In this document: piece by piece, positions 11,081-58,369 of the stretch
Position numbering within the stretch: position 1 is the first letter of the stretch
Layout: every line of letters begins with the position of its first letter
From: Stegostoma tigrinum
Taxonomy: Eukaryota
Direction of reading: 5' to 3'
DNA length: 64,000 nt
Assembly: GCF_030684315.1 (NCBI RefSeq)
Contig: NC_081387.1
Span: 6,056,497-6,120,496, forward strand
Position numbers and translations under genes: made by a program
Notes under the pieces: generated by a model
Told to the model about the DNA's origin: nothing
Databases searched by the model: none
Seen by the model: the letters and a program-made list of their open reading frames with translations, nothing else

Positions 11081-11781
11081 ATTGGGGAAACCAAGCGGAG
11101 GCTTGGGGACCGCTTTGCAGAACACCTCCGCTCAGTTCGCAACAAACAACTGCACCTCCCAGTCGCAAACCATTTCCACTCCCCCTCCCATTCTCTTGAT
11201 GACATGTCCATCATGGGCCTCCTGCACTGCCACAATGATGCCACCCGAAGGTTGCAGGAACAGCAACTCATATTCCGCCTGGGAACCCTGCAGCCATATG
11301 GTATCAATGTGGACTTCACCAGTTTCAAAATCTCCCCTTCCCCCACTGCATCCCTCAACCAGCCCAGTTCATCCCCTCCCCCCACTGCACCACACAACCA
11401 GCCCAGCTCTTCCCCCCCACCCACTGCATCCCAAAACCAGTCCAACCTGTCTCTGCCTCCCTAACCGGTTCTTCCTCTCACCCATCCCTTCCTCCCACCC
11501 CAAGCCGCACCCCCAGCTACCTACTAACCTCATCCCACCTCCTTGACCTGTCCGTCTTCCCTGGACTGACCTATCCCCTCCCTACCTCCCCACCTACACC
11601 CTCTCCACCTATCTTCTTTACTCTCCATCTTCGGTCCGCCTCCCCCTCTCTCCCCATTTATTCCAGTTCCCTCCCCCCATCCCCCTCTCTGATGAAGGGT
11701 CTAGGCCCGAAACGTCAGCTTTTGTGCTCCTGAGATGCTGCTTGGCCTGCTGTGTTCATCCAGCCTCACATTTTATTATCA
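11081..11781 (+). mobile_element. Penelope-like element 3' part (GIY-YIG endonuclease C-terminus and pLTR)
   Basis: IGETKRRLGDRFAEHL...VANHF...EQQLIFRLGTLQPYGINVDF, followed by a C-rich UTR and a hammerhead core. Confidence 0.92.
11685..11720 (+). ncRNA. Minimal type I hammerhead ribozyme motif
   Basis: CTGATGA-a-gggtctaggccc-GAAA-c-GTC: both conserved core boxes, stem II, a palindromic ACGT in place of stem III, and a GUC cleavage triplet. Confidence 0.7.
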
Positions 11782-12319
11782 AGAAATTGGGTGGTCAGCT
11801 TTTCAAAGTTGGCAGACAGAATCTAATAAAAGGAGGGAAGAGTCAATTCAGAAAATAAACAAATTGAGGAAAGGAAGAAAAAGAGCGTAAATAATAATGG
11901 ACTGGGTCAAAGAAGAACTGTGGTAAACTGATGATTTCTACTAAGTCTGAACTGAGGCCTGACAGTGACGGCGAAGTTCAGGCCCATGGCTGGGATGGTT
12001 GTACTAGGCATGACAATCGAAGACAACAAGACAGACAAGCCCATGATCCATCTGCCCCTGTCGCAGATTCAAGTACTCATTCCTAACCCTCCTCCACCAT
12101 GTTACCATCTCCAAACTATGGCAATCCCTGTACCAAGTAATCAACCCACTTCTACCACCAGTTCCAGGGGGCAACACCAATCCCCGTTATATTGGTAGTG
12201 AAAATTTTTCTAGTTCCTATTTCAAAACTTACCCGTTCCCGAACTGGAAGCGCGGGTGCACCGAAGTATTGGTCACAGGCAATTGGACATCATTTACCAG
12301 CAGGGATTTCAAGTATTTC

Positions 12320-14002: not shown

Positions 14003-15002
14003 CACTCTTATTGAGTTCTTTGTGAAGGTGACCAAACAGGTGGAGCGTTGGATGCGGTGCACATGGATTTCAGTAAAGCGTTTGAGAAGGTTCCCCATGG
14101 TAGGCTATTGCAGAAAACACTGAGTATGGGATTGAAGCTAATTTAGCAGTTTTGATCAGAAATTGGCTATCTGTAAGAAGACAGAGGGTGGTGGTTGATG
14201 GGAAATGTTCATACTGGAGTTTAGTTACTAGTGGTGTACGACAAGTATCTGTTTTGGGGCCGCTGCTGTTTGTCATTTTTATAAGTGACCGGGATGCGGA
14301 TGTAGAAGGATGGGTTAGTAAATTTGCGGATGACACGAAAGTCGATGGAGTTGTGGATAGTGTGGAAGGACATTGCAGGTTACAGGGGGACACAGATAAG
14401 CTGCAGAGCTGGATTCAGAGGTGGAAAATGGAGTTTACTGCGGAAAAGTGTGAGGTGATTCACTTTGGAAGGAATAAACAGGAATACAGAGTACTGGGCT
14501 AATGGCAAGATTCTTGGTAGTGTGGATAAGCAGAGAGATCTCGGTGTCCATGTGCATAGATTCCTAAAAGTTGCCACCCAGGTTGATAGGGTTGTTAAGA
14601 AGGCAGATGGTGTGTTAGGTTTTACTGGTAGAGGGATTGAGTTTCGGATCCATGAGGTCATGTTGCAGCTGTACAAAACTCTGGTGCGGCCGCACTTGGC
14701 GTATTGTGTACAGTTCTGGTCACCGCATTATAAGAAGGATGTCGAAGCTTTGGAAAGGATGTAGAGGAGATTTTCCAGGATGTTGCCTGGTATGGAGGGA
14801 AGATCTTACAAGGAAAGGCTGAGGGACTCGAGGCTGTTTTCGTTACAGAGAAGAAGGTTAAGAGGTGACTTAATAGAGACATACAAGATATCAGAGGATT
14901 AGATAGGGTGGATAGGGAGAACCTTTTTCCTCGGATGGTGATGGCTAGCACAAGGGGACGTAGCTTTAAATTGAGGGGTGATAGATATAGGACAGATATC
15001 AG
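14003..15002 (+). mobile_element. CR1 LINE RT fragment (an older CR1 piece lies at 13340-13620)
   Basis: [30 protein letters not shown]. Frameshifted; cut at 15003 by a Penelope element. Confidence 0.9.
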
Positions 15003-17100
15003 GTAACAAATTGTGGGGCTGGATGAACACAGCAGGCCAAGTAGCATCTTAAGAGCACAAAAGTTGACATTTCGGGCCTCGATCCATCATCAGAAAAGGG
15101 GGATGGGGAAAGGATTCTGAAATAAATAGAGAGAGAGGGGCAGGCAGACTGAAGATAGATAGAGGAGAAGATAGGTGCAGAGGAGAGTATGGGTGGGGAG
15201 GTAGGGAGGGGATAGGTCAGTCAAGGGAGGACAGGTCAAGGGGGTGAGATGAGTTTAGTAGGTAGGAAATGGGGGTGTGACTTGAGGTGGGAGGAGGGGA
15301 TAGGTGAGAGGAAGAACAGGTTAGGAGGGCAGGGAGGAGCTGGCCTGGTTTTGGGATGCATTTGCGGAGGGAAGGGGAGATTTTGAAGCTGGTGAAATCC
15401 ACATTGATACCATTAGGCTGCAGGGTTCCCAAGCGGAATATGAGTTGCTGTTCCTGCAACCTTCGGGTGGCATCATTGTGGCACTGCAGGAGGCCCATGA
15501 TGGACATGTCATCTAAAGAATGGGAGGGGGAGTGGAAATGGTTTGCGACTGGGAGGTGCAGTTTATTGCGAACCGAGCGGAGGTGTTCTGCAAAGCTGTC
15601 CCCAAGCCTCCGCTTGGTTTCCCCAATGTAGAGGAAGCCACACCGGGTACAGTGGATGCAGTATACCACATTGGCAGATGTGCAGGTGAACCTCTGCTTA
15701 ATATGGAAAGTCATCTTGGGGCCTGGGATAGGGGTGAGGGAGGAGGTGTGGGGGCAAGTGTAGCATTTCCTGCGGTTGCAGGGGAAGGTGCCGGGTGTGG
15801 TGGGGTTGGAGGGCAGTGTGTAGCGAACAAGGGAGTCACGGAGAGAGTGGTCTCTCCGGAAAGCAGACAGGGGTGGGGATGGAAAAATGTCTTGGGTGGT
15901 GGGGTCGGATTGTAGATGGCGGAAGTGTCGGAGGATGATGCGTATCCAGAGGTTGGTGGGGTGGTGTGTGAGAATGAAGGGGATCCTCTTTGGGCGGTTG
16001 TGCCAGGGGCGGGGTGTGAGGGATGTGTTGCGGGAAATGCGGGAGACGCGGTCAAGGGCGTTCTCAACCACTGTGAGGGGAAAGTTGCGGTCCTTGAAGA
16101 ACTTGGACATCTGCGATGTGCGGGAGTGGAATGCCTCATCGTGGGAGCAGATGTGGCGGAGGCGGAGGAATTGGGAATAGGGGATGGAATTTTTGCAGGA
16201 CGGTGGGTGGGAGGAGGTGTATTCTAGGTAGCTGTGGGAGTCGGTGGGCTTGAAATGGACATCAGTTACAAGCTGGTTGCCTGAGATGGAGACTGAGAGA
16301 TCCAGGAAGATTAGGGATGTGCTGGAGATGGCCCAGTGAACTGAAGGTTGGGGTGGAAGGTCTTGGTGAAGTGGATGAACTGTTCGAGTTTCTCTGGGGA
16401 GCAAGAGGCGGCGCTGATACAGTCATCAATGTCACTGAGGAAGAGGTGGGAGGAAGGGATGGGTGAGAGGAAGAACAGGTTAGGGAGGCAGAGACAGGTT
16501 GGACTGGTTTTGGGATGCAGTGGGTGGAGGGGAACAGCTGGGCTGGTTGTGTGGTGCAGTGGGGGGAGGGGATGAACTGCGCTGGTTTTGGGATGCGGTG
16601 GGGGAAGGGGAGATTTTGAAGCTGGTGAAGTCCACATTGATACGGTGCGGAAGAAGGACTGTTCCACGTAACCTACAAAGAGGCAGGCATAGCTGGGGCC
16701 CATGCGGGTGCCCATGGCCACCACCTTAGTCTGTAGGAAGTGGGACGAATCAAAAGAGAAGTTGTTGAGGGTGAGGACGAGTTCGTCTAGGCGGATGAGG
16801 GTGTCAGTGGAGGGGGACTGGTCGGGCCTGCGCGACAGGAAGAAGCGGAGGGCCTTGAGGCCATCTGCATGCGGAATGCAGGTGTATAGGGACTGGACGT
16901 CCATGGTGAAAATGAGGTGTTGGGGGCCAGGGAATTGGAAGTCCTGGAGGAGGTGGAGGGCATGGGTGGTGTCACGGACGTAGGTGGGGAGTTTTGGGAC
17001 CAAAGGGGTGAAAATGGAGTCCAGATAGGTGGAGCTGAGTTCGGTGGGGCAGGAGCAGGCTGAGACGATGGGTCGACCAGGGCAGGCAGGTTTGTGGATT
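15003..17100 (-). mobile_element. Penelope-like retroelement (RT and GIY-YIG), disrupted
   Basis: ORFs 16311-17003 (TMDVQSLYT, AMGTRMGPSYACLF, DIDD in place of YIDD) and 15217-16404 (CNRRKCYTC, NVVYCIHCTRCGFLYIGETKR). pLTR with hammerhead core at about 15065-15093. Confidence 0.95.
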
Positions 17101-17262: not shown

Positions 17263-17485
17263 AGTATCAGAGATAATGGGAACTGCAGATGCTGGAGAAT
17301 CCAAGATAATAAAATGTGAGGCTGGATGAACACAGCAGGCCAAGCAGCATCTCAGGAGCACAAAAGCTGACGTTTCGGGCCAAGACCCTTCATCAGAAGG
17401 GTCTAGGCCCGAAACGTCAGCTTTTGTGCTCCTGAGATGCTGCTTGGCCTGCTGTGTTCATCCAGCCTCACATTTTATTATCTTA
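17263..17485. mobile_element. Palindromic Penelope pLTR mini-insertion
   Basis: 89-bp inverted arms (17303-17391 and 17396-17484, 1 mismatch, 4-nt loop). 13-bp TSD gcccagttacatt at 17250-17262 and 17486-17498. Confidence 0.92.
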
Positions 17486-17775: not shown

Positions 17776-17827
17776 ATGTTGCTGATCCTTTTCTCCATCT
17801 CGCTATGTTTTTCCTGGGTCTCTTCCG
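17776..17827 (+). pseudogene. MHC class I-like leader exon, copy 1 (splice donor mutated)
   Basis: MLLILFSISLCFSWVSS plus a phase-1 G, 52 nt. Donor reads ataagt where the gene B paralogue has gtaagt. Confidence 0.8.
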
Positions 17828-18895
17828 ATAAGTACAGAATCCGGCTTTCCCTTCTCTCTCTCCCTCCCCGAGGGGGAGTCTGTGAATCTCTTGGCGAGTG
17901 AATGAAATGAGGGATGTTGCATCAGCCGCCTGTGATACAGCCAGACTGATATTTTCCCCACTGAAGGCAGTGCAGTCTGAAAGGTTCTGATGGGATTCTT
18001 TAAAATTCCTTTGTCATGGGATATTTGCCCCACTGCTTGGTCAGCATTTATTAACCATCAGAAATTGCTTTGGAGTGTATGGAGAGCCACATTGCTGTTA
18101 GGAGGTGGTTTCACCATTTTCATTCAAGGATAGTGAAGGAATGGTAATATGTTTCCAAGTCAAGATGTTAAGTGGCTTGGAAGGGACTTGGAGTGATGGT
18201 GTTCCCATGGTTTTCTTTCCAAATCGCTTGTGAGATGAGTGTTTCCCTGGGAGGGCCGGCATTTATTGTCCGTCCCTGGTTGTCCTTGTGAGGCGGTGGT
18301 AGCCGCCTTGTTGAACCACAGCAGACCACGGGCGGGGCTGGGACAGCAATCTGGGATTTTGACTTAGCGACAAAGAAGGAACCACAAATGTATTTCGAAG
18401 TTAGGTTGGTGACTGGCGTGGAGGGGAACTTTCAGGTCGTGGTGTTCCCATGTATCTGCTGACCTTTGTCCTTCGAGATGGAAGTGAGGGTGAATTTGAA
18501 AAAGTGCTTTCTAAGGATCAGTGGTGAATTTCTGCTGTGCATCTTGTAGCTAGTGCACGCAGCTGCTACTGAGCTTCGGTGGTGAAGGGAATGGATATGA
18601 TGTGAACACCCTGTTGTCCTGATGTTACAGAAGCGAACAATAATTATTACAGGATGATATTTGCAGATTAACATTACATCCCGTCACTGCCGTGAACGCA
18701 GCTAATTGGACCAGTGGCAGTTTGAAGGCTTTGTGAATTCATGGTCGTTTGGGAAGATCGATTGTGGATATCTCCTGAAGATAGCAGAAAGTGTCGAATA
18801 CCTCTCCATGCCAAACGGCCCAACTATGTTCCCTTTTGTCTCATCTAGACAAAAGAAGGCTTCGTTCTTTTAGTATTTTTTTTTGCAGCCTGACG

Positions 18896-21800
18896 TAAGA
18901 ACATAAGAACTAGGAGCAGGAGTAGGCCATCTGGCCCCTCGAGCCTGCCCTGCCATTTAATAAGATCATGGCTGATCTTTTTGAGACCGAGCTCCACTTA
19001 CCTACCCACTCACCATAACCCTGAATTCCTTTACTGTTCAAACACTTATCTAGTCTTGCCTTAAAAACATTTCGCGAGGTAATTTCAACTGCTTCACTGG
19101 GCAGGGAATTCCACAGATTCACAACCCTTTGGGTGAAGAAGTTCCTCCTGACCTCAGTCCTACATCTGCTTCCCTTTATTTTGAGGCTATGCCCTCTAGT
19201 CCTAGTTTCACCTGCTAGCGGAAACAACCTCCCTGCCTCCACCTTATCTATTCTCTTCATAATCCTATATGTTTCTATAAGATCTCCCCTCATTCTTCTG
19301 AATTCCCGTGAGTATAATCCCAGTCTACTCAGATCGAAGATGGCAGTTCCCATTGTCTCTGAAACAACTCTGGAATCAACCGAGGGAATCTCCTCTGCAC
19401 CCCCTCCAGTGCTAGTATATCTCTTCTCAAGTAAGGAGACCAAAATTGCACACAGTACTCCAGGTGTGGCCTCGCCAGGACCCTATACAGCTGCAGCATA
19501 GCCTGCCAAGCTGCATCTTCGGAGCAGAAAAGCTGTCGTTTGAGACCTAGACCCTTCATCAGAAATGAGGGAGGGGGAGAGGGTTCTGAAATAAATAGGG
19601 AGAGAGGGGGGAGGCAGATTGAAGATGGATAGGGGAGAATATAGATGGAGAGGAGACAGACGAGTTAGAGGCAGTTATGGAGCCAGTAGAGGTGAGTGGA
19701 GGTAGGGAGGGGTTAGGGCAGTCTGGGGAGGGCAAGAGAGTTGCAGTGGGAGAGAGATCCCCTGAGGTTTGTCCAGAGGGAGGAGGGTAACTTCAGGTTA
19801 GGCATCCCTAGAAGAGGCTTCGCAGTGAGGTTAAAATTGTATCAGAGATAATAGGAACTGCCATCTTCTATCTGCCTCCCCCTCTCTCCCTATTTATTCC
19901 AGAACCCTCTCCCTCATCCCCCATTTCTGATGAAGGGTCTAGGCCCGAAACGTCAGCTTTTCTGCCCCTAAGATGCTGCTTGGCCTGCTGTGTTTATCCA
20001 ACTGTACACTTTGTTATCTCGGATTCTCCAGCATCTGCAGTTCCTATTATCCCTGTAGCATATCCTCCCTGTTTTTAAAACCCATTCTTCGAGCAATGGC
20101 AGACAAAATTCCATGTGCCTTTTGAATTACCTGCTGCATCTGCAATCCTACTTTTAGTGATTCATACAGAAGGACACTCAAGTCCCCCTGTACAGCAGTG
20201 TGCTGCAATTGTTTATCATTTAAAGCATAGTCCATTTTGCTGTTATTCCTACCAAAATGCATGACCTCACACTTCTCAACATTGTACTCCATCTGCCAGA
20301 CCTTTGCCCACTCACTTAGACTATCTATATCCCTCTGCAGACTTTGTGTCTTCTGCAGACTTTGCTCTACCACTCATCTTAGTGTCATTTGTGAATTTTG
20401 ACACACCACACTTAGGCCCCAACTCCAAGTCATCAATGTAACTTATGAACATTGCGGTCCCAACGCTGATCTGTGAGGCACACCACTAGCCACTGACCGT
20501 CAACCAGAAAAACACCCATTTACCCCTGCTGTTTGCTTTCTACTGGTCAACCAATCTTCTATCCATGCCAATATATTACCTGTAATACCGTGGAACTTTA
20601 TCTTATGTAACAGCCTTTGGTGTGGCACCTTGTCAAATGCCTTCTGGAAATCCAGTTACACCAAATCCACAGGATCCCCAATGTCCACCGTGCAAGTAAT
20701 GTCTTCAAAGAATTCCACCAAATTAAACATTTAAACATGACCTACTCTTCATGAACCCATGCTGGGTGTTCCCAATGGGACAATTTATATCCAGATGTCT
20801 TGCTATTTCTTCCTTAATGATAGATTCAAGCATTTTCCCCACGACCGAAGTGAGGCTAACTGGCCTATCGTTACCTGCTTTTGGTCTACTTCCTTTTTTT
20901 AAACAGTGGCGTCACATTGGCTGCTTTCCAACCTGCAGGAACCACCCCAGAGTCCAGTGAATTTTAGCAAATAAACTAGTAATTATTTACCATTTTCCCC
21001 GTCACCTCTTTTAGTCCCCTGGGATGCACTTCGTCAGGGCCAGGAGACTTGTCTACCTTTAGCCCCATTAGCTTGCCCAGCATTGCCTGCTCAGTGATAA
21101 TGATAGTTTCTAGGTCCTTGCCGGCTATAACCACATTGCTATTAGTTTTCGGTGTGTTATTTGTGTCTTCCATAGTGAAGACCAACACGAAATAACTGTT
21201 GATGCTTCGGCTATTTCCTCATTCCCGGTTATGAAATTGGCCTTCTCACCCTCGAAAGGACCAATGTTTACCTTCGCCACTCTTCTACAATTCACATATT
21301 TATAGAAACTTTTGCTGCCTGTTTTTATATTCTGAGCTTCTTTGCTCTCATAATCTATCTTTTCTTTCTAACCTTTTTTGTGGCTTTCTGTTGGCCTCTA
21401 AAGATTTCCCAGCCTACCAGTTTCCCACTATTCTTTTGTAAGTTTTTTTTTCAATCTGATACTTTCCTTTATTTCCTTCGGCATCCTTGGCTGGCTGTCT
21501 CTTTCCTACAGTTCTGACTTATCACTGGAATATACTTCTGCTGAGCACAGTGAAAAATCATTTTGAAAGTCCTCCACTGTCCCTCAATTGACCCACCAGA
21601 AAGATTTTGCTCTACCTGAGCTAACTCCTCCCTCATTCCTGCATTGTCTCCTTTGTCTAAGCACAGGGCATAGGTACTGGATTTAACCTTCTCACGCCCC
21701 ATCTGTATTTTAAATTCGATCATATTGTGATCACTCCTTCCGAGAGAATCCCTAGCTGTGAGATCATTAATCCCTGTCTCATTACACAGGACTAGATCTC

Positions 21801-23150
21801 GGATAGCTTGCTCCCTCATAGGTTCAATTATGTATTGTTCAAGGAAATTATCACGGATGCATTCTATGAGCCCCTCCTCAAGGCTGCCATGACCGACCCG
21901 GTTTGACCAATCAATATATAGATTAAAATCCCCCATGATAATTGCTGTACCATTTTTACATGCATTATCTATTTCTCTGTTTATTGCCTGCCCCACCACG
22001 ATGTCATTATTTGGTGGCCTATAGACCACACCTATCAGTGATTTCTTCTCCCTGCTATTCCTAATTTCCAACCAAATGGATTCAACGTTTTGTTCAGTAG
22101 AACCTACATCATCTCTCACTCCTGCCCTGATATCATCCCTAAACACCAGAGCAACACCACCTCCCTTACCTTCATGTCTGTTTTTCTGAGCAGTTTGATA
22201 GCCCTGGATATTTAACTCCCAGTTATGACCATCTGTAACCATGTCTCTGTAATGGCCACTAAATTATACCCATTTGCCATGATTTGCGCCGTCAACTCAT
22301 CCACCTTGTTTCGAAAGCTCCGAGTGTTCAGATAAAGTACCCTTATGCCAGTTTTTGCACCTTCTTTTTGGGTCCTATTACCTCCATTACTAACAGCTCT
22401 GGAGTTCTCCTTCCCTTTAACATATTTTTCCTAATTTTCAATGGAGTTGAAACTTCCTCGTCATCTGCTAACCTGCTGCTTTGCTTTCCATTAATTTTTC
22501 TTCTCCCTCTACGCTCACTTCTCCCTTCCCCGCTACTTACTAGTTTAAAGTCCCATTAACCACCTTATTTACCATTTTTGCCAGAACACTGGTCCTGGCC
22601 CTGTTCAGGTGGAGCCCATCCCAGTGGTATAGCTCCCTCCTGTCCCAGAACTGATGCCATTTCCGCATGAAAAGGAAACCCTCTTTCCCACACCACTCTT
22701 TCAGCCACGTGTTTATTTCCCTGATCCTTGCCTCCCTATGCCAATTTGCGCGTAGCTCGGGCTGCAATCCAGAGATTATGACCCTTGAAGACCCGTCTTT
22801 CAAATTTGCTCCTAGCTTCTTGTAATCCCAGAAGAGGTCTTTTTTCCTAGTCCTGCCTATGTTGCTGGTACCTACGTGGACCACAACAACTGGATTCTCC
22901 CCCTCCCTCTCTCGTATCCTCTCAAGCCGGTCAGAGGTGTCTCGCACCCTGGCACTGGGCAGGCAACACACCATGCAGGATTCTCCATCCTGCTCGCAAA
23001 GGATACTGTCTATCCCCCTGATGATGGAACCCCTTACAGCTACAATCTGTCTTTTTCCTCCCCGCTCTTGAATGGCCTCCTGGACTATGGTGCTATGGTC
23101 AGTTGACTCATCCTTCCTGCAGCCCTGTTCCTCATCCAGGCAGTGAGCAA
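18896..23150 (-). mobile_element. Near full-length CR1 LINE, decayed
   Basis: ORF1 SGNH esterase (VVHVGTSNI...DGLHLN, 22540-22974), APE endonuclease (GVVYRPP, MGDFN, SDHN, 21469-22242), RT, and a (taagaaca)n tail at the left end. Confidence 0.93.
19501..20052. mobile_element. Penelope pLTR inverted-pair insertion nested in CR1
   Basis: Inverted pLTR arms, an intact + strand hammerhead core at about 19927-19954, and TSD ctg(c/t)agcata at 19491-19500 and 20053-20062. Confidence 0.85.
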
Positions 23151-23317
23151 GCCTCTGACTCTCTCTGAATGCGATGGCCCTGGTAACTGGTGACAGTGAG
23201 CCATCTGGTCCTATAAATTAGGTTTTTTTTTAAACTGAGACTAACCAATCAGTTGCCTTCTGCAGTCTGGAGAGGTTTGATCTGAAACGAAAAAGATTAT
23301 GTGGATTATTTTGATTG

Positions 23318-23635
23318 AGATCACAGAATCATCAAAGAATCCCGACAGTGTGGGAGCAGGCCCTTCTGCCCAACAAGTCCACACTGACCCTCAGAGCATC
23401 CCACCTCGGCCCATATAACCCACCTAATCTACACATCCCTGAACACTACGGGCAATTTAGCACGGCCAATCCATCTAACCTGCACATCTTTGGACTGTGG
23501 GAAGAAATCAGAGCACCCAGGGGAAACTCTCACAGACACGGGTAGAACGTGCAAACTGCACACAGACTGTCAGTGAAATCGCACCCAGGTTCCTGATGCT
23601 GCGAGGCAGCAGTGTGAACACTGAGCCACTGTGAT
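23318..23635 (-). mobile_element. HE1-like SINE in the gene A promoter
   Basis: Minus strand begins cacagtggctcagtg. Body matches the other copies. Confidence 0.85.
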
Positions 23636-23686
23636 CGATGAGCATATTTCACTCTTTGATTCAAATAGGCACAGAGGATTCCCAGA

Positions 23687-23734
23687 ATGTTGCTAGACCT
23701 TTTCTCCATCTTCCTGAGGTTTTTTTCCTGGGTC
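23687..23734 (+). pseudogene. MHC class I-like leader exon, copy 2 (truncated by a SINE)
   Basis: MLLDLFSIFLRFFSWV, then SINE sequence replaces the last codons and the donor. Intron-1 homology with the other leader copies resumes at about 24000. Confidence 0.75.
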
Positions 23735-23983
23735 ATAGAATCTTAAACTAAAATCCTTATGGTGTCAAAAGAGGCCATTCGGCCCACTGATATTGCAGCG
23801 ATCCTCCAGAGAGCGCCCCACTATTCCCACATTTCTTATTTATTCTGGCCAATCCACCTAACCTGGACATCATTGGACTTCGGGAGGAAACTGGAGTACC
23901 CAGCGGAAATCCATGAGGACACAGGAGAACGTACAAACTCCACAAACAGACAGTCACCCATGGCTGAAATCAGACCTGGGTCA
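23735..23983 (-). mobile_element. HE1-like SINE inside leader exon copy 2
   Basis: 'tggccaatccacctaacct...ggaggaaactggagtacccagcggaaatcca' body. Confidence 0.8.
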
Positions 23984-24189
23984 CCTTGTCACGTGAGACA
24001 TTGCTCTCTCCCTCTCTCTCTCGCTGGGGTGAATGTGAATCTTGGTGAGAGTTTGAAATGGGGGCTGTTTGGCCATCCACCCGTTATACAGCCAGCCTGA
24101 TATTTTACACACTGAAGGCAGCGCAGTCTGGGAGACGCTGATGGGATTTGTATCCAGGTGTCCTGACAGCAGGATGTAGAAACCCACAG

Positions 24190-24760
24190 ATCAGGAAGTG
24201 AGTGGCCCAGGCGGATTGCCCGTTGGGTGGCATTGAGCAGGTTGATGACACCTTCCATCACTTTCCTGATGATCAAGAGTAGGCTGATGGGTTGGTGGTT
24301 AGTTGGGTCGGATTTGTCCTGCTTTCTGTACGCTGTGTACGTGGGCAGTTGCTGAGTAGTCACTAAAATTGTTGTTGAACTGGAATGGTTTGGCTCAGGG
24401 TTGGCAGGTTCTGTCTTGAGTACTGGATTGTTGTCAGGGCCCATATTCTTTGCAGTGTCCTGTGCCTCCAGCTGTCTTATGATATCACATGGAGTGAATC
24501 AAATTGGTTGAAGACTGGCATCAGGTGGTAATGTTCACTCATGCTTGGACTGTTGATGCAAGGGTCCTTGGAGGAGGCTGGGATGGAATATCCATTCAGT
24601 ACTTCTGTCTGAAGATTGCAAATATTTCAAAATATCTTGAACTCTGATGTGCTTGGGATTTTTCTGGAGCCGACTGCTCCAGTGAGCTGTTTATTTGTAC
24701 ACTGTTATTAATGACTACATGTGGCAGGACTGCAGAGTTTAGATCTGATCTGCCTGTACC
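24190..24760 (-). mobile_element. LINE RT fragment
   Basis: KQDKSDPTNHQPISLLLIIRKVMEGVIN is a decayed NYRPISLL motif. Confidence 0.7.
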
Positions 24761-25712
24761 TGATTTTTCATTATTCTTCTCTGTATGTGCCTGACTCTCT
24801 ACATTACCTTCTGTTCCCAAATCTCACTCTCTGTATCATTATCTCTCTCCATATCATTCTCTGTGTATATTTACTGCACGCTCTACCGCCCACTTTCTCT
24901 ATTTTGCCCTCTGTCTCACTGGTTCTTGATGCCATTCTGTCTGTGTTTCATTATTTTTTCATAGTGCATTTTCTCAGTGTAAATGGTTCTCTCTTTTTCT
25001 CTTCCTTTGCCTGACTGCACTCACTCTCCGTATCACGCTTTCTCATGCCATTGTCTTTGACCACTGTCAAGAATGCCGTTCCCTCACACCCACCTCCCTG
25101 TACATCATCTCAGGCTGAATTTGAATTGGGCTGTGCTGTTTGACCTGAAGCTGAACTTCCAATCCCATAAGTTATCGGCTGTATTTTAGTCGGTGGCACT
25201 GCTGCATTTAATGAGAAAAACATATGGGTTCTCATTCTACTCCCAAGTCCCAAGCATAATATTTAACTCATGAACTAAATCTGGTCATTTTGGCACCGCT
25301 GATGTGAGAGCTAGCTGTTTACAAATGGACACTTGTATTTCTTCTAAAATTTTCATTACATCCTCTTCATCGTTATGAAGATTAGCAACTTCCCATTCAA
25401 GTCTCTCTTCCGCCTCCATCTGTTCCTCATCTCCTGCTGAAACTCTCGCCCATGTTTTTGGTACCACTACTTTCAACTATCTCATGGCCACTTTCTCATC
25501 TTGCTTCCTCCAGAATCTTAGGATCCTTAAGACCTTTGCCCATGCCTGTTTACTGCCTTGATGTTTAGTTTAAAATCTCAGATTCGGATTCTGATGTTGA
25601 AATGAAAAGGAGGTTATCATTGTCTAGTCATAATTCAATTAGATCAGTTGGCACTCTTTGGAAATATTATTAATCATAAATTAATCAATGATTTCATTGT
25701 CTTATTTGACAG

Positions 25713-25978
25713 ACCCGAGTTCCTTCACTGTGCTGTACACGGGAACCACTGGGATGACCGATGGCCCTGAGCTTGTTGGTGTGGCAATGCTCAATGGGGC
25801 TACCCTATCCTATTATGACAGTGAAATCTTGAAGATGGTTCCCACACAGCAGTTCATATCAAACTATCTCACTGTGGACGACTGGGATTATCTCACCCTC
25901 CTGGGTGATGATTATCTCACCCTCCTGTGATGAAGGAGACTTTGAATACGATCATGATATCGATGAACCTGACAGCTG
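25713..25978 (+). pseudogene. Gene A alpha1 exon (frameshifted)
   Basis: DPSSFTVLYTGTTGMTDGPELVGVAMLNG...YYDSE...DDWDYLT, then a shifted frame MKETLNTIMISMNLTA carrying the N86-type sequon NLT. 266 nt. Confidence 0.88.
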
Positions 25979-27049
25979 GTACGATGAGTCAAACTGTTAC
26001 CTGCCACTGAGAGCCAAGTTACTGTGGCTCTCTGGGGAGTTGGCTGCTACTCCTTGAGGATGAAGCAATTATTTTTCATATTGTTCTGCTCTGTCTCCAA
26101 CTCCAGACGTCTCCACTGTCCACAGCCAGCCCCATCTGAAATTTTGCATCATTCATGATTTTTTTTCCACAGATGGGGCCCTCACCCTTCAACACAATCT
26201 GAACCTTGACTTCTGTAGAGTTCCATTCTCTCCACTTAAACCTCATGGATATCAGTGGAAAAAGGTGAGGGAGAGCTGCTTGGCAAGTTGATATAAGGAG
26301 AAACATTCCGAGAGAGTAACAGAGAAGTGACCAATGGGCAGGAAAAGAGAGCTGGAAAACTAGAGAAACATAAACGAGGAGGTAGCAGCAGACATGATGG
26401 AGAAAGGGCGAGGAAGCATGAGGTGACAGTGGAGTGATGTAGGGGAAAGCCTGGCAAAAGAAAGCAGGACAGACAGTGACAGCATTCAGGAAACCATTCA
26501 GCCCATGATACATCTTCCATCCATTTGCGCTAGAAGTCTGACTTATTTCCATTTGGGAGCAATGATGACAAGGCAGCCTCAGAGCTTTGGTGAGGTCAGC
26601 TGAGATCATTCACTGCATCTTCTTCGGTGGCTGAACAAGCTGCTCCTGGAAAGGCAAAGTCTGCAACAAGCTGGGGCTGTCCTCAAGGTAGTGGGTGAAG
26701 GCCTCTGCTGGCACCTTGTTTGTAAGGTTAGTAACTGCTTTGGAGTTTCTGAAACAAAACGTCATGGTGGTGGTGAAATGTTGCCATGAAGCTGATGTTG
26801 CCATTTGCACAGTTCCACATGTTGCAGTTGATGCTGAAGGTGGCCATGTGTGTGTGTGTTTTTTCTTGACAGCATCTTTGATGAGTGGGAACTTTGGGTG
26901 CCTTGTTGGTCTCTTGACACTGGCTGCCATCCTGTATAGCATATCCTTGGGAATGTGGCTAGCCCTTCCAGCCTGGATGTAAGCCCGAGCCATGGTGAAC
27001 ATGAGCATGCTTGGCATGTTTTCCTGAGAAAGAGCTACCTCTTTTGGTT

Positions 27050-29000
27050 ACTTTGTCTTTCCATGATGTGCCATAGACGTATGATAGACACCAGAGATGG
27101 AACTTATTTTCTGTAGCCTTTCATCCTAATGGATGTAATTTGTCCATGTTCATTGTCATGGAGAAATATGCAAAGGATACAGGCCCTGTCAGTCAGGTTC
27201 CTGGTCCTGCGGATCAATGTTTTGTTGCTCCATGCCTGGCTGATGATACTGGCTTTCCTTCCAATGTGTGTGTTAAGCTCTTTGCCAAGAAATAGGGTGT
27301 CTGTCATCAGAGAATTTACTGACTGCTTCCAGTGATGTGTTTTTGAACACGGACAGAGACACATAGCCTTTCCTTTAGCTACAGTTTTTCAATACCAATA
27401 GTGAGGTACAACATGACACAGGCATATGGGGTATAAGATTCCTGAACATTGGAGCCGTTCTTCCATGTAGATAACTATTGCAGCATCATTCATCAGTCTA
27501 TCAAAGTGCTGCGATCAAGACTTGCTGCATTTTTGGACTTGACTTTCAGGCTTGTTCATTTGAGGAGTTTCTCATCAGGTTGGAAGGAAATACAACTCTT
27601 TCATGTCAGCAGTATGACAGAAAGAGGATACAAAACAAAATATGGATTAGGACTCAGACCAGTCTCCACCCATTCTTAATCAATGAACTGTAAGAGATGG
27701 AATCATTGAACTGATTGGTGCTGTGCATGTTTCCATGGAAGGACTGAACAAGAAAATGAAGATCAGGAGGTCAGCACATTCTCTCTAACATCCAATAGCT
27801 CCTGGTCTCATCGTGGTGTCAGATGCTTTCGTGAAATCCCCAAAAGCAAGGTAGAATTTCTTCTTTTTTCACTGCTTTCCACCTTCGCTTGAAGCTGAGA
27901 TTGGGATAACATCGTGCTTTCCAGATCTGTCTGATGTGAAGCTCCATTTTGCTGCTAGTTATATTCTGTTGGCTGGTTGATGAAGCCTTATTTGACTAGC
28001 TCTGGAAAAGCCTTCCAGAACCCTCTGCAGAGTGAAATGCCACAGTAGTTGCTTCAGTTTCCTCGAGTGCCTTTGTTCTTGTATAATTGGTTGAAATTAT
28101 GTCACACACATCGTGTGGAACAGAACTTTCTCCCTAATGGAATTGAACGACATAGAGGCGTCAAAACAAAGTAGGGTTTTCCGTACATGTATAGCCTTGA
28201 CTGGTATTCCATTCCTCCAGCGGCTTTCAGGGCTACAATGCGAGTCAATGGCCTTTTCAAGAAACATGACAGATAGCTGCAGATGATCATTAAGCACAGG
28301 CAGAGGGAGATATCTGGATCACATGGGTATAGTTAGAGTAGCCAATCTGTCCAGTGAGTCATTTGCGTCTTCAAATCAGTGACTACTCTCCCATTTGTGG
28401 ATCTCAAGAAGCAAGTTTTCTCGTGCTGCGCTTGAGTGTTCTCCTGATGATAATCAGCATGAAGGTTATCATTGTCACTAGCATCTATATTTCTTTATAT
28501 GGATTGGTGCAGTACCTGTAGGGACAGTACCTTTCTGCATCCTGCACAACTGTCTTCTCCAGTATTGGACTGGCATATGCCTTAGTGTAAAGACACAGTT
28601 TACACGCCAGGAGAGCTGTTCTGTTTGTTTTGATGACAGGACTCATTTCTGTAAAGTTGGATCTCAGTCCTGTTCATGATGCTTTCTTTGCGAGATCTGG
28701 TCACTGCAGTTTTGTTGTTAACTGTATCTCTGTGTGCAGGCATTTCAGTTCTTCATCATTGCTACTGACTGAGCCTTCAGATGGAAGAGACTGCACAAAG
28801 TTTCAGCATTTTTGCTATTCTCCATCAGTTCCTTGTGTCTGGCATGCTAATGGGTAGTATGCCACTATATGTGGACATGTTTGTTTATCATGTTTATGCT
28901 TTCATCTGACATGTGCTGGTGTGCACCTTGAAAAGATGATGTTAGCAACACAGTGTCAAATCTCTGTACCACGTCCAAGAAGCTGTCCATTTAGCCAATG
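27050..29000 (-). mobile_element. RTE-clade LINE remnant in gene A intron 2
   Basis: Decayed NYCGISL and FYLAFGDFTKASDT motifs on the minus strand at about 27810-28080. Confidence 0.6.
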
Positions 29001-30117
29001 CCAGAAAATGAGTCTGATCCAGATTCGCCAGGGAAATGACTTGTCTCGGGGTGGCAAATGCCTCAGAATATCACCTGGAGTATTGAGGAAGTGATCTTCC
29101 TTTTCAGCATTGACGCAGAAGATTGGTCAGCAAGCAGTCAGCGTTGACAAAACTTCCCGCTGCTGGAGCAAAGTGAAATGATGCATTTAAAGGATATGAT
29201 AGGCAATTTGATTACCTGTCATTCTGTTAGTGACAACAAAACATGGCTTACAGTGGACATCTGAATTTTGGTCATGCCAGTTAAAAGCATAATTTGCCTC
29301 ATTTATTGATTCAGTGTCAACCAATCATAGTGAATTTGAGAGCACCAAAGTCAATATTGTGTAGCCTGTAAGAACATGAGAGCTGGGAACAGGGAGTAGG
29401 CCATTCAGCCCAATGAATCTGCTCTGCCATTTGATACGACCATGGCTGAACTTATCTCAGCCTCAACTCTCCAGTCCTATCATTATCCATAACCCTTCAA
29501 CACATCACTAATTAAAAATCTTCTATCTCCTCCTTAAATTTACTCCATGTCCCTGCAATAATGAATTCCACAGATTATTTCCCCATTTAGAGAAGTGATT
29601 TCTCCTCATCTATGTTTTAAAATCTGCTACCCTTTATCCTAAAGCTATGCTTTCTCGTTTTAAGTTGCCCCACTGGAGAAAACGTACTCTCTACGTTGAC
29701 TTGCGAACCCCTTTTCTTATCTTTCATGCCTCTCCATCAGCCTGAATCATTCCTCACTCATTCCCACTGAATCACTGTGAAGCCAATTCCATGTCCTAAT
29801 CTCACCCTGAACCAATTCCATATTAATCACATTGCCATAACTGCTTCCATAGCTGGATTAAAATCTCAACATATTCAGAAATTCACGCTTCCTCATCATG
29901 GCCCAGAATGAATCCAAGAGTAATCTGATCCTCTCTGATCAGACTGCTTCCCTAAATCCCCTAATTCTATCTGATACAAAACACTCTTTCACCTCTAATC
30001 AGAATGTGACTCGCAATTTCCATTTCTATCGGATAATGGATTCCCTTGCCCTCTAATCGGATAGTTTGTGGTTATCCATTCATTATTACTGATTGACGCC
30101 TGCTTGGTCACTGACAG

Positions 30118-30393
30118 GAATTCACACTCTCCAATGGCTACGTTCCGTTGAGGTCAGTGATGACGGCTCTGTGAAGAGATCAATGCGATTTGGATTTGAC
30201 GGGAAGGACTTCATTAGTTTAGAGCCAGACAGAATGAGATGGGTCGCAGCCAATCACTTTGCAGTGAAGACTAAATATAAATGGGATTCAGATGAATCTT
30301 GGAACAAGTATTGGAGATGGCAATTGGAAACAGAACTATTTGACCTTTCAAATAATTACTTGCGAGTTGGAAAGGAATATTTCAAAAGGAAAG
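30118..30393 (+). CDS. Gene A alpha2 exon (open, 276 nt)
   Basis: GIHTLQWLRSVEV...FGFDGKDFISL...AVKTKYKWD...YFKRK. Canonical class I exon-3 length; AG/GT intact. Confidence 0.93.
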
Positions 30394-30510
30394 GTATGTA
30401 TTTCAGTTTTGATCCCATGTTCTGCTCTAACCTCACTGATCTATGTAACTGCTGTCCCATTCCATTCAGTGTCTGTCTATTGTTTCTGTTCTCACCCTTT
30501 CCCATCACAG

Positions 30511-30791
30511 TTCAGCCTGAAGTGTTCATCTCCAGGAGTGAGCCCAAATCTTCAGGACAAGCCGTCCACTCGCTCCTGTCTGGACACTGGATTTTATCCT
30601 GTAGACATCGAGGTGACCTGGCTAAGGAATGGGGAGGTCATGTCCGAGACACAATCCTCGGGGATTCGACCGAACCACGATGGGACTCATCAGATCCAGA
30701 AAGAGATATTGAATCATTGCTGGGGATGAGGATCAATATTCCTGCCAAACTGAACACAGCAGCCTGGCAGAGGCCAAGCTGTATCAGTGGG
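30511..30791 (+). pseudogene. Gene A alpha3 (C1-set Ig) exon with two +1 frameshifts
   Basis: SCLDTGFYPVDIEVTWLRNG...PNHDGTHQ...YSCQTEHSSL. 281 nt versus 279 in gene B, with extra bases near 30547 and 30708. Confidence 0.92.
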
Positions 30792-31952
30792 GTAAGAATA
30801 TGATGTATTTATGTGTTTATGACAGATTGTAGGTCAGAGGACACTGGTTCACTACCTCGCCTGCACATATACACCTTTCTCCCTATACTTTCTTGTTGTG
30901 TTGGTCTCACCTGAGTTGAGTATTCCAATTTTAAGTTTGTCAAGGTCTCTTGTTCCTGAGTTTTCAAGTCTTTTGATGGAGATTTTCACATTCCCACTGC
31001 CCTGTTGTTGGTGAATTATTCACCAGTTTCACTCTGAAATGACCCCACCGTAATTACATGAAGACTTTCTTGCATTCCAGGCTTCAGCACTGGACATGGG
31101 CCCTGACTGTTCAACACCCAGTCAGTTAGAGACTGGTCAGACCCTAAAAGAGGAAGGTCTGGACCCCTCAGAATTCCTGACTCATTAAATGGGATTTTTT
31201 TCGGGAAGTTTCAACTTCCAATTGACAATTACTTAGCATCTGGAACCCTCTGAAAAGGTCTCCAGTTCTGAGTTAGAGTCGGAGACTTTGCAGAGCTCTG
31301 ACTCACCTCAATACTAATACGGGAAGCGTGAAAGAGATTAAAAGCTTCTTTAATTCCTAATATGATGATGCTGCCACTTTCAAAGGTTATTTTATCCTTT
31401 TGTTTTGAAGAGCGGTTATAAGGCATATGTGCTGCTAAAGACAACTTCAGCAAACAACTTGGCTTTTCTCAGGGTGTTAGAACATTGACAGAGCTGACGA
31501 GCTGCTTTCAGATCCAGATTTCCCAGTTTCGGTATTAACAGTAGCATCAGAAGCCAATGGGCCTTAAGAGTTCGGAGCTTCAGTGAATGCCTCCCGGCTA
31601 TTACTGTCTCTGATTATTTTCTTAATGTTGTTCCCTCCTAGATTGGAGGACTGAGTGTAAGAATCTGTGTCTGAATTTGCCTTTTTGCCAAAGCGTGTAT
31701 TTATGGGATGTTAATATATTGGAACAATTAATTAGCAATAGGTACTGTACTCTGTTATTCGGTTACAGTTTTCAATAGTTAAATTATTCTAAATTCCTTT
31801 TCCTTTTGTTTGTATTTTAAATGCAGTGTTCAAATCAAGTGTGTTTTGCTTAACATAGTGTAGTTTGACCAATTGCATCGCATCTGGAACAGGCCACTTC
31901 ATATCTACTTTTAAAATAAGAAATAGTTTAAACCCAGGCTATCTTCTTAAAA

Positions 31953-32410
31953 GATAATAAAATGTGAGGCTGAATGAACACAGCAGGCCAAGCAGCATCT
32001 CAGGAACACAAAAGCTGACGTTTCGGGCCTAGACCCTTCATCAGAGAATGGGGAGGTCATGTCCGAGACACAATCCTCGGGGATTCGACCGAACCACGAC
32101 GGGACCCATCAGATCCAGAAAGAGATTTGAATCAGTGCTGGGGATGAGGATCAATACTCCTGTCAAATTCAACACAGCAGCCTGGCAGAGGCCAAGCTGT
32201 ATCAGTGGGGTAAGAATATGATGTATTTATGTGTTTATGACAGATTGTAGGTCAGAGGACACTGGTTCACTACCTCTCTGATGAAGGGCCTAGGCCCGAA
32301 ACGTCAGCTTTTGTGCTCCTGAGATGCTGCTTGGCCTGCTGTGTTCATCCAGCCTCACATTTTATTATCTTGGAATTCTCCAGCATCTGCAGTTCCCATT
32401 AGCTCTGATA
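31953..32410. mobile_element. Palindromic Penelope pLTR insertion carrying a copy of the alpha3 exon 3' part
   Basis: Inverted arms 31951-32047 and 32275-32371. TSD ctatcttcttaaaa at 31939-31952 and 32411-32424. Centre 32046-32276 copies 30627-30858. Confidence 0.9.
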
Positions 32411-33234
32411 CTATCTTCTTAAAAAACCATTTTGCGGGGGTCTAGTCTGGTCCATAACACGAGGGAACTATAAAACTGACCATCTCCAAACCTACTGCTC
32501 AACACCCACTTCACGCACTGTCGAGGATATCTGGTTAGCATGGGCAAGTTGGATTGAAGGATCTGTTTCCATGCTGTGTGGCTGTATGACGCCATTCCCT
32601 CAAACACATGTCCTGACAATCCGCAAGCAATGCTTGATCTTGCCCCAGCACCAGCACCAGTTCACCAGCTCCAGATGCCTGTCTGACTTGCAACGCATCA
32701 CCCCAGCCAGCCGATTGAAACGCAACACACAATACCGCCCCCGCTGCGTCCATCCCCGCTTGCCCGCTGGACCTCTAACATGATCCCTTCACTGCCCCAC
32801 TACGGCACCCAAACAACATTCCATTGTCACTCAATATCCCTGACACTCACCAGTGAGACCCCCAACTGACCCTTGCCCAGCAACCCAAGAACTGAATCTT
32901 TGGGATAACTCAGTACACCCCTTCAACCATTCACTCACTGCTCCAGCTCAACCCTGGTCCACCTACCCCTCCACCACCAGCAAGGACCGGACACAGATGT
33001 CAGGGAGAATGTGAACTGAGAAGGTAACCCCTAGGATGGGCACCACAAGATGTTTGCACCCCCATCAGTGGGATCTTTAATGACTTCAGTGGAGAATGCC
33101 ATTGGGAGAGGGTCAAACCAGCATTTCAATGAATCCCGTCAATTCCCAAAGGGCAGGAGCAGGTAAAATCAGCGCAAAGCTGGAAATAAATCCAGGAACA
33201 GCAAGAATCCTGACCTATTTCCAATGTGTTTCAG

Positions 33235-33354
33235 AAATTCCCAAAAGCAGTTGGCGACTCTCCTACCTCGGAGGTTTCATTGCATCGATGATCTTTCTAT
33301 TGGCTGTTATTGTTGGGATAATCGGAATAATCATCTGGAAAAGGCCATGGAGAG
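33235..33354 (+). CDS. Gene A connecting peptide/transmembrane exon
   Basis: EIPKSSWRLSYLGGFIASMIFLLAVIVGIIGIIIWKRPWR, 120 nt, AG/GT intact. Confidence 0.9.
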
Positions 33355-36039: not shown

Positions 36040-38260
36040 GTGGTAAAGGAAGGCACAGTGGAAGCTAAAAATGTGTAAAAAAATGTTCAACCTGAGCAGG
36101 AGTTGATTGAGAATGTATAGATATCAGGAGGAGCAGGGAGAGAAATTAAGATTGAAAGAGATAAAGGAACAGGCCAATCTTTGGTAAGAGATGAGGAGCT
36201 ATGTAATTCAGTCAGACTATCGCCAGAAAAGATAGTAAGGTGTGGAATTCAAGTGGGAAGAACAGTGTTCCTTTATATAAAGTGAGATTGGAGAGTCTGG
36301 TGAAAAATGGAGAAGTTGTGGTCGGAGTAACACAGAAATTGTCAGTTCTGAAAATACAGTTTATCCTTTGTAATGATATAGTGGGATCATAGGTAGGAGT
36401 GATGCCGACTATGGCTGAAAAGCCAGTGGAAAATCAGACAACTGAGGTATTACAAGAAGTGTATCCTGGTATTTTTCCTGACTGAATGGTAATAAGGTCA
36501 CAAAGCCATCGGCTGAAACAGGAGGAGAAATTAAGGAGTAAAGATGAGGAAGTTGAAGTTCAGTTGTCAGAAACTACGCTCAGTCAAATGGCTGAGAAAA
36601 ACACAAGGACAGGTTGAGGAATAAGTTCATGTGTTTAGCCCAGAGAACTGAGCTGGATTACAATGGAAAGATGAAAAACAAAAACAGTTGAATCAAAAAG
36701 CGTACACAGAAGAAGAATCTGAGTGTAGCTGGAATGTTACTATCTTAAAAATGATGTCTTAAAGAGGAAACATAGACTATCACATATTCAAGCAGATGAA
36801 AAATGGGCAGAAGTACATCAAAGATAATAGGAACTGCTGATGCTGGTGAATCCGCGATACCAAGGTGTGGAGTTGGATGAACACAGCAGGCCAAGCAGCA
36901 TCTTAGGAGCAGGAACGCTGACGTTTTGGGCCCAAAATGTCAGCTTTCCTTCTAAGATGCTGCTCAACCTGCTGTGTTTATCCAACTCCACACTTGTTAT
37001 CTCAGAAGTTCATCAAGTTGTGTTACTAGTGGGTTACAGAAAGGAAGTATTGCGGGTAGCACATAGATTATCATAGGAGGCCGTTTCGGAGCTAGAAAAC
37101 CCCAAGCCAAAATACAAAGGCTTTTTATTTTGGCCTGCACTGCATAAGGATGTGATTGAATTTTGCTGGACATGTCATGCCTGCCAGGTAACAGGAAAAC
37201 CTCATGCAGTGATTAAGCCAGCCCTTAATACCCATACCTGCATTTGAATACCTGTTACAAGGGCCTTACTTGATTGTGTCGGACCCCGAACTAAAACAAA
37301 AAAGTGTTTGTTGACCATAATGAATGAGCCTGCTGGATTTCCAGAGCCACTCCATAATGCAGGATCACAGCTTGTAAGAAAATGTTGCGTAACCCTTCTC
37401 CTAGATATGGACTACGATAGCAATACAGTCAGATCAAGAAGCAAATTTTACTTCAGAGTTATTCAAGGAAGTTATGGATAGCTTATTAATAAAAATAATC
37501 AAATCCATTGCAAACAATCCAGAAGTACATGGAGCATTATGACGGTGGCATGAAACTTTAAAGACCATGTTGAGAACATATCATCCTGACTCTCCAGGGA
37601 ATTAGGATAAAGGAATTTCATTTGTACTTTTTGCAATTAGAGATGCACCGAGAGAATCAACTAAAGTCAGCCCATTTGAATTTGTTTTTTGGCATGAGGT
37701 GAGACGGCCATTGAAATTAATTAAGGGGAAATTGGTATGTCAGAGTTCAGAGACCACATATTTGGATAGTGTCAAATTTCCGAGAGATATTAAATAGAGT
37801 GGGTGAGTTGGCGAGGCAAATTTAAATGTGGTGCAGCATGTGATAAAACAGAAAGCAGACAAGATCAAAAATTTGTAATTTTGCTCATGGAGATAATGCG
37901 CTCGTGTAACTCCCAGTGGCAGGTGAACGTTTGAAAGCAAGGTTTTAGTGGCACAGGGTCAAAAGAAATTGAAAGCACTCTTCGAGATGGCATGGTCAAA
38001 GTGATTTGCAGTGAATGGAGCAGCATTGCGACGGTGCCAGGCCTGTGTAGTAGTAAATTATTGTGCTTGGACTCTCGCAAAGTCATCTGATTCAAATCCT
38101 AGTCCATGCCTGGAAGGTTTTGTTGGGAAAGTGCGACAAGCAACATATATTACTCAGTTGGATTTACTCAGAGGACACTGACAGGTACCTTTATCTAAAA
38201 GAGTGAGGGAAATTATAGTTTTTCTGTCACTGAAATGGACTTTACCCATTTACACTCATG
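36040..38260 (+). mobile_element. Gypsy pol remnant
   Basis: EVHQVVLLVGYRKEVLRVAH...WPALHKDVIEFCWTCHACQ (integrase zinc finger), IQSDQ and SPFEFVFGHEVR motifs. Many stops. Confidence 0.8.
36822..37002. mobile_element. Older palindromic Penelope mini-insertion inside Gypsy pol
   Basis: Inverted arms centred near 36930. TSD cagaagt(a/t)catcaa at 36808-36821 and 37003-37016. Confidence 0.85.
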
Positions 38261-54385: not shown

Positions 54386-54880
54386 GTGAAATTAGTCTGA
54401 TAGGCTTTAATAGTGTCTGGGAGGGTGAGGCAGGATCAGGAAGGGAGTGAGTTTAATCTGGTGGGTTTTAACAGTGTCTGGGAGGGTGAGGCAGTATCAG
54501 GAAGGGAGTGAATTTAGTCTGTTGGGTTTTAACAGTGTCTGGGGGGGCAAGGTAGGGTCAGGAAGGGAGTGAATTTAGTCTGGTGAGTTTTAACAGTGTC
54601 TGGGGGTGGTGAGGCAGGATCAGGAAGGGAGTGAATTTAGTCTGGTGGGTTTAAACAGTGTCCGGGAGGGTGAGACAGGATCAGGAAGGGAGTGAATTTA
54701 GTCTGGTGGGTTTAAACAGTGTCCGGGAGGGTGAGGCAGGATCAGGAAGGGAGTGAATTTAGTCTGGTGGGTTTTAACAGTGTCTGGGAGGGTGAGACTG
54801 GGTCAGGAAGGGGGTGAGTTTAGTCTGGTGGGTTTTAACAGTGTCTGGGAGGGTGAGACTGGGTCTGGAGGGGAGTGAAA
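54386..54880. repeat. Minisatellite, 8 copies of a 61-bp unit
   Basis: Unit starts at 54386, 54447, 54508, 54569, 54631, 54692, 54753 and 54814. Confidence 0.95.
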
Positions 54881-55636: not shown

Positions 55637-55745
55637 CTTTTCCAGATGATTATTCTCATTATCTGAACAGCAACAACCAGTGGAATGATTATTGATGCAA
55701 TGAGACTTCCAAGATGAGTGAGTTTCCAATTGCTTTCTGGGATTT
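55637..55745 (-). pseudogene. Gene B TM exon (11-nt deletion at the 3' end)
   Basis: EIPESNWKLTHLGSLIASIIIPLVVAVQIMRIIIWK; 109 nt versus 120 in gene A. Confidence 0.85.
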
Positions 55746-58171: not shown

Positions 58172-58369
58172 CTGTCAGTGACCAAACGGGCATCAATCAG
58201 CAATAATTAATAGAAAATCACAAACTGGTTGATCAGAGGTGAAAGCTGACCTAGGATCAGCTAGAAATGGGGGATTAGAGTCACAGTCTGAACAGTGACA
58301 AATGAGATCTGGTATTAAATGGAAATGGAACAGCAAATCCAATAGTGAATGATGTCAGGGGATGATTTG

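Follow-up and report, generated by a model that had tools for sequence, protein, structure and literature searches.

The window, a stretch of 64,000 nucleotides from contig NC_081387.1 of Stegostoma tigrinum, contains two genes of the MHC class I type, gene A on the forward strand (17776-33354, +) and gene B on the reverse strand (60324-55637, -). The exon sets of both genes were located by tblastn with relatives as queries, and the following features were obtained.

17776-17827, +, leader exon of gene A, from the ATG; splice donor AT, not GT (the leader of gene B has GT there)
25713-25978, +, alpha1 exon of gene A; 266 nt against 261 expected, a net +5 frameshift
30118-30393, +, alpha2 exon of gene A; open, V101 and L164
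30511-30791, +, alpha3 exon of gene A; 281 nt against 279 expected, one +1 insertion near 30546 and another near 30708
31939-32424, no strand assigned, repeat insertion in an intron of gene A; 97-nt inverted arms at 31951-32047 and 32275-32371
33235-33354, +, transmembrane exon of gene A; open, 120 nt
60273-60324, -, leader exon of gene B; donor intact
58884-59144, -, decayed alpha1 exon of gene B; in-frame TAA near 59045 and frameshift near 59003, 3' end approximate
57896-58171, -, alpha2 exon of gene B; open, V101 and F164
57498-57776, -, alpha3 exon of gene B; 279 nt, in-frame TGA near 57668, second Ig cysteine changed to Ser
55637-55745, -, transmembrane exon of gene B; 109 nt, 11 nt shorter than that of gene A and out of phase
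9271-9389, -, remnant of an orphan transmembrane exon, containing stops and derived from a third family member (tblastn)

Gene A possessed a dead leader donor and three frameshifts, and gene B had two stops, one frameshift and a lost donor, the GT being absent at the expected end of its alpha1 exon, in addition to the out-of-phase transmembrane exon. Every domain exon other than alpha2 was broken in both genes, and neither gene offered an open leader-alpha1-alpha2-alpha3-transmembrane frame with intact splice sites. The alpha1 frameshift of gene A sits at an 18-nt direct repeat (25886-25903 and 25910-25927). Contigs from the DNA runs X1 (sample S1) and X3 (sample S2), which bear the same species label and one of which may be the source sample, crossed this lesion without a gap, and one of these contigs showed 14 other differences; therefore, an assembly slip was ruled out as the cause of the frameshift. 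Contigs over the alpha3 exon of gene A mixed paralogues, and its two insertions are known from the assembly only. Furthermore, a contig from run X18, which has a different species label and was classed as RNA by the tool's guess, joined 25776-25977 to 30117-30240, that is, at the predicted splice sites, and did not contain the five extra alpha1 bases of gene A. Accordingly, A and B are very likely pseudogenes that belong to a multicopy family of non-classical MHC class I genes in sharks, likely UEA; the window copies most likely give no protein. The orphan remnant at 9271-9389 (-) and a second decayed leader exon at 23687-23734 (+), inside the first intron of gene A, are traces of additional family members. 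Tandem repeats were present at 58358-58759, in the alpha1-alpha2 intron of gene B, and at 54382-54879, 3' of its transmembrane exon; a similar repeat is translated in the public gene model P0045, which is likely an annotation artefact.

The insertion at 31939-32424 is a high-copy repeat situated 1.2 kb downstream of the alpha3 exon of gene A and flanked by a 14-nt direct repeat. Between its arms lies a 227-nt copy of the alpha3 end and intron of gene A itself, 96.5% identical to 30629-30856, which is without one of the insertions of gene A and shows an in-frame stop in its place. The arms matched the tails of larger elements at 11686-11788 and 15001-15094. A Pfam search of three open reading frames of the repeat elements gave no match, and the element contained a GIY-YIG-like motif, which we take to be a sign of a Penelope-like element; the insertion is likely a templated capture by an element of this type. 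This repeat tail also occurred as inverted pairs at 17265-17484, 19497-20055 and 36817-37002, and one of these pairs lies about 300 bp upstream of the leader exon of gene A.

Both alpha2 exons were 276 nt long and free of stops (A, 30118-30393, +, with AG and GT ends; B, 58171-57896, -), and they matched the Pfam family MHC_I (PF00129) above the cut-off with E values of 8e-15 and 2e-12, respectively. Codon 101 was GTT (Val) in A, at 30147, and also in B, while codon 164 was CTA (Leu) in A, at 30336, and TTT (Phe) in B. An earlier note on this DNA had reported these same residues, and its reading held at the codon level. The numbering was confirmed independently, as a gap-free HMMER comparison of the closest database relative of A with solved class I chains put both cysteines on columns 101 and 164, and the supplementary alignment of PMC10751288, which includes HLA-A2, gave the same columns. 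Misalignment was thus ruled out as the source of the cysteine-less call. The alpha2 cysteines are described in PMC4364491 as a hallmark that is kept in the teleost S and P lineages. The near-invariance of the disulfide, also assumed in the note, was borne out: in a 50%-cluster search, both cysteines were present in 148 of the 155 outgroup alpha2 domains in which columns 101 and 164 were occupied, while four were without Cys164 and three without Cys101. Therefore, the absence of both cysteines is an unusual state among class I proteins. Three class I domains of the outgroup, not belonging to the family (P0209, P0218 and P0222), had Val101 with Cys164 by automatic alignment, and the loss of Cys101 may have occurred outside the shark family too. 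The remaining residues were likewise as the note had stated: Q96 and D119-G-K-D122 were retained in both genes, T143, K146 and W147 were retained in A (B has L143), and Y7, Y159 and W167 were replaced in both. Of eight peptide-anchor residues listed in PMC4364491, A kept four and B three.

The two open alpha2 exons had been taken as an argument against decay, which did not hold for genes that are both pseudogenes. In a simulation with 4 and 5 lesions placed randomly by exon length, 5.3% of the trials left alpha2 clean in both genes, and 16% left any one domain exon clean in both. Because chance alone gives these values, the open exons were not significant and are weak evidence of selection (P of 0.05 with alpha2 named and 0.16 for any domain exon). 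It is very unlikely that the alpha2 exons of the broken genes are still selected, as gene-conversion donors or as part of an unusual transcript. No coding lesion was found within alpha2 in either gene, with P of about 0.05, but this value rises to 0.16 when the clean exon may be any domain exon; moreover, the alpha2 exon of B carries rare changes at conserved columns, including G132, R138 and C171, and A has no working leader donor. The dN/dS between the two alpha2 exons was 0.31, which counts against the pseudogene reading but mostly reflects a long earlier life as genes.

A database search with the alpha2 of A retrieved 67 proteins from 11 shark species with identities of 60-81%, and a profile search added family members from Heptranchias and Pristiophorus. 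The named in-group matches of these non-exhaustive searches came from 13 shark species, and the sole ray match keeps both cysteines. Most of the relatives are RefSeq gene models, and only some of them are proven transcripts. Column 101 was filled in 93 of the 104 in-group alpha2 domains and was Cys in none of the 93. After 13 domains with a gap at 101 or 164 and one truncated model had been dropped and identical rows collapsed, 85 distinct domains were left. In these, residue 101 was V in 79, A in 3, I in 2 and L in 1, with no Cys, while residue 164 was L in 26, F in 24, C and Y in 8 each, S in 7, G in 5, D in 3, and V, H, T and W in 1 each. Column 164, with 11 residue types and 2.69 bits, was among the most variable (hydrophobic in 60/85, Cys in 8/85, other in 17/85), as were columns 158, 159, 163, 167 and 170 (2.5-2.8 bits for the whole set). 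The cysteine loss is thus a family trait and not peculiar to A and B. The earlier claim of a lineage feature as opposed to random decay is supported by the 0/93 count for Cys101. The accompanying claim of a coordinated, paired hydrophobic replacement is not, because Val101 is near-fixed (79/85) and shared with dogfish UCA while position 164 is hypervariable.

A lone Cys164 without Cys101 was seen in eight distinct domains (P0082, P0007, P0035, P0064, P0072, P0093, P0054 and P0001). Five of the carriers were included in the alpha1-3 tree, where a single clade of them was rejected (p-AU 9e-6), and gene conversion could contribute to this scattered distribution. In addition, a lone Cys at alpha1 position 45 was observed in 30/76 members. 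The free cysteines at 164 and 45 might permit dimers. A compensating disulfide was not supported, with 0 or 1 Cys in the alpha1-alpha2 region of 61/76 members.

The intact cysteine-less alpha2 relatives that the note had proposed to look for in shark sequences were found, including a nurse shark reference with V101/L164. Random decay of the cysteines in two separate pseudogenes would fit the broken state of A and B and the long end branch of B (0.39), but its probability is practically nil: Cys101 is absent from all intact relatives, the GTT codon is identical in both copies, and the intact nurse shark orthologue has the V/L pair of A. Decay was thus refuted by the intact relatives, and A and B, which belong to different sublineages, appear to have inherited the cysteine-less state.

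The phylogeny was based on alpha1-3 (42 rows, 272 columns; quick search with SH-aLRT support only and no bootstrap). A and B fell within a 32-row clade (98) that was sister to UCA (91). A paired with the bamboo shark sequence XP_072406403.1 (98) within a subclade of 7 rows (99) containing both galeomorph and squalomorph sharks, and B was placed in a separate subclade (95). The sisterhood of A and B was weakly rejected (p-AU 0.038), and a recent duplication giving A and B was rejected as a reading. The squalomorph members from Heptranchias and Pristiophorus (P0076, P0077, P0078, P0081 and P0082) mixed with galeomorph genes in the subclades, and because both groups mix in this way, the sublineages of the family would predate the galeomorph/squalomorph split. 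In an alpha2-only tree, with few columns and an unresolved root, UCA fell inside the family; this tree was superseded by the alpha1-3 tree, in which the UCA branch is long (1.69). A and B were not orthologous to the dogfish sequence AAN78091, which is identical to A at 35/92 residues and lies outside the 98 clade, subject to the long-branch caveat. UDA-like and UGA-like rows also lay outside the clade of A and B, and UFA, absent from the tree, keeps both cysteines in its alpha2 as given in the PMC10751288 supplement. Nor did A and B have the classical UAA features C101-C164, Y7, Y159 and W167.

The alpha2 of A shared, by eye, 86/92 residues with the nurse shark sequence in supplementary file 10 of PMC10751288, whose alpha1-3 are intact and whose alpha1 and alpha3 also match those of A. 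This reference is labelled UCA in that supplement, in which the name UEA had no match, while the text of the same paper gives "UEA (multicopy)" for the family in this cluster. Its contig-style name and its length of 1453 nt point to a spliced transcript, since the alpha1-alpha2 intron of A alone measures 4.1 kb. A carpet shark closely allied to the nurse shark is thus the likely source of the window. UEA is described as a multicopy, MHC-linked, ancient lineage (PMC10751288, PMC12562908) and as an expanded, ancient family (PMC12562908). The clade of A and B is thus likely the described UEA lineage, the name being only likely because it rests on the "UEA (multicopy)" wording, with UEA-labelled sequences absent from the comparison. 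The note had suggested UEA and UCA as candidates, and this was the right neighbourhood: A and B belong to a multicopy clade that is related to but distinct from dogfish UCA. UCA, narrowly defined, is known only from dogfish, and UEA occurs in sharks and is not known from rays or chimaeras. UEA shares the class Ib cluster of the MHC with UDA, in the interval from brd2/beta2m to rxrb/col11a2; none of these four genes was seen as a neighbour within the 64-kb window.

The cysteine loss had been offered as possibly new, but it was already visible in a published alignment, as the 2023 supplement of PMC10751288 contains cysteine-less sequences labelled UCA from two sharks. A full-text literature search, covering papers other than the original lineage papers, found no statement in words of the cysteine loss in UEA or UCA. 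The original UEA/UCA lineage literature probably states it already. Almeida and co-workers are said to have found, in 2021, that UEA and UCA have lost anchor residues and possess the most hydrophobic grooves.

Among 76 intact alpha1-alpha2 domains of the family, Q96 was present in 75 and G120, D122, N86 and T88 in all 76, and W60 was invariant in a 40-row alignment. Residues of the Q96, W60, G120 and D122 type are beta2m contacts, and N86/T88 is a glycan site. Because these are kept, intact members are likely normal heterodimers, and they would be beta2m-bound, N86-glycosylated membrane proteins. W133, W147, W156 and M114 (76 each) and W152 and D150 (75 each) were also near-invariant; outgroups were variable at 114, 152 and 156, and W152/W156 were common to the family and UCA. 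Position 7 was mostly V instead of Y, Y159 was found in 15/76 and W167 was replaced. The mean groove hydropathy, over one list of groove positions, was 0.21 ± 0.30 in the family (n = 75) compared with 0.01 ± 0.40 in other class I proteins (n = 114), with overlap between the two, and for the same list it was -0.08 in UAA-like (n = 3) and -0.56 in UDA-like sequences (n = 6), again with overlapping ranges. No solved structure of the family was found, and the best PDB matches were about 35% identical or less. An AlphaFold model of the member P0004 (pLDDT 76, pTM 0.63) had the class I fold, with both helices and the eight-strand floor; the rmsd to solved chains was 7-8 Å, likely owing to alpha3 placement without beta2m. 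Because MR1, YF1 and classical chains tied in the fold searches with this model (Z about 21), it tells nothing about the ligand.

The events suggested by these sequences would be as follows. Cys101 would have changed to Val once, before the UCA/UEA split, freeing position 164, and duplication would then have yielded many paralogues, some of which, like A and B, died. The lack of the disulfide in A and B likely goes back to an ancestor that they have in common with dogfish UCA. In intact members, the A-pocket network for the peptide N-terminus (Y7, Y159, W167) would be gone and the alpha2 helix would no longer be pinned to the groove floor, while W133, W147, W152, W156 and M114 would close or line the middle and the F end of the groove. 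Such a groove might hold a hydrophobic non-peptide ligand, lipid-like or a small molecule, in the manner of chicken YF1 or MR1, and the variable 158-170 helix might set paralogue-specific contacts with the ligand or a receptor. We put the probability of this explanation as a whole at about 0.8, its parts on identity and pseudogene status being very likely and its part on the ligand about even.

The non-peptide groove, which the note had raised, is plausible in the intact relatives, and a hydrophobic non-peptide ligand is favoured at roughly even odds over C-terminally anchored peptides or an empty groove. The hydropathy, only modestly raised and overlapping that of other class I proteins, and the largely kept F-pocket residues count against it. 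T143 (57/76), K146 (69/76), W147 and Y171 (55/76), retained in most members, fit the binding of a peptide C-terminus, so that intact members may still bind peptides anchored at this terminus only, the N-terminal end being open or extended and the A end loosened by the disulfide loss. The complete helices and floor of the predicted model and the tie of classical chains with MR1 and YF1 agree with this possibility, but it is unlikely, as R/Y84 is not conserved (R in 18/76) and the invariant W152, W156 and M114, at positions where outgroups vary, add bulk to the mid-groove. The many invariant bulky residues facing the groove might also mean that it is closed and empty. MICA, FcRn and HFE are class I-like examples of receptor ligands and transport proteins, and a similar role of intact members would agree with the most variable stretch being the alpha2 helix 158-170, including its outward-facing positions. 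This is doubtful, however, since the floor and alpha1 groove positions 5, 22, 24, 34, 45, 67, 73 and 99 vary between paralogues, as for a used cavity. Beyond the favoured non-peptide ligand, a wider proposal seems improbable: the disulfide loss would be a defining character of UCA plus UEA not yet stated as such, and would mark, with the invariant W152/W156/M114/D150 and the hypervariable 158-170 stretch, an ancient, shark-wide, diversified MR1/YF1-like sensor array, in which the proteins would fold without the canonical disulfide and every paralogue would form a separate pocket for a hydrophobic ligand other than a peptide.

A and B themselves matter little, as dead copies in a family turning over by duplication and loss. 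The feature is real; it is a lineage trait of a described family with no paired event, seen here in two pseudogenes. At the level of the family there is some value: at least 13 shark species retain a class I lineage that does without the disulfide found in 148/155 other domains, and an intact member offers a natural test of the purpose of the C101-C164 bond and of how far back non-peptide presentation goes. Specialists in the shark MHC are unlikely to be surprised, the sequences having been aligned for years.

Compared with known systems, the family of A and B resembled UEA in being multicopy, found only in sharks here, related to UCA and without several peptide anchors, but the window copies are pseudogenes. 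Spiny dogfish UCA (AF515705 / AAN78091.1) shares V101, the absence of Cys164 (it has V164), V7, W97, W152 and W156; it differs in its low alpha2 identity to A, in F147 and in the lack of N86. The classical shark UAA (PDB 6LUP) and UDA agreed with the family in exon plan, in beta2m contacts and in the N86 site, but keep C101-C164 and were only about 31-36% identical to A in alpha2; the UDA-like, UAA-like and ray sequences of the comparison likewise keep both cysteines. Chicken YF1 and mammalian MR1 have the class I fold, accommodate non-peptide ligands in a small pocket of hydrophobic or aromatic character, and were among the top, tied structural matches; they are not orthologues, and since classical chains tie too, the match shows the fold only. 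Both YF1 and MR1 keep the alpha2 disulfide. Shark class Ib lineages are described as biochemically distinct in the binding region, which suggests that their antigens differ (PMC10751288). Among them, UFA and UGA were reported to be lipid-binding and CD1-like (PMC12562908, citing a personal communication). They are separate lineages, and both cysteines are present in all five UFA/UGA alpha2 sequences of the PMC10751288 supplement; like the family of A and B, they are non-classical shark class I in the MHC, and their lipid binding is a precedent for the proposed ligand.
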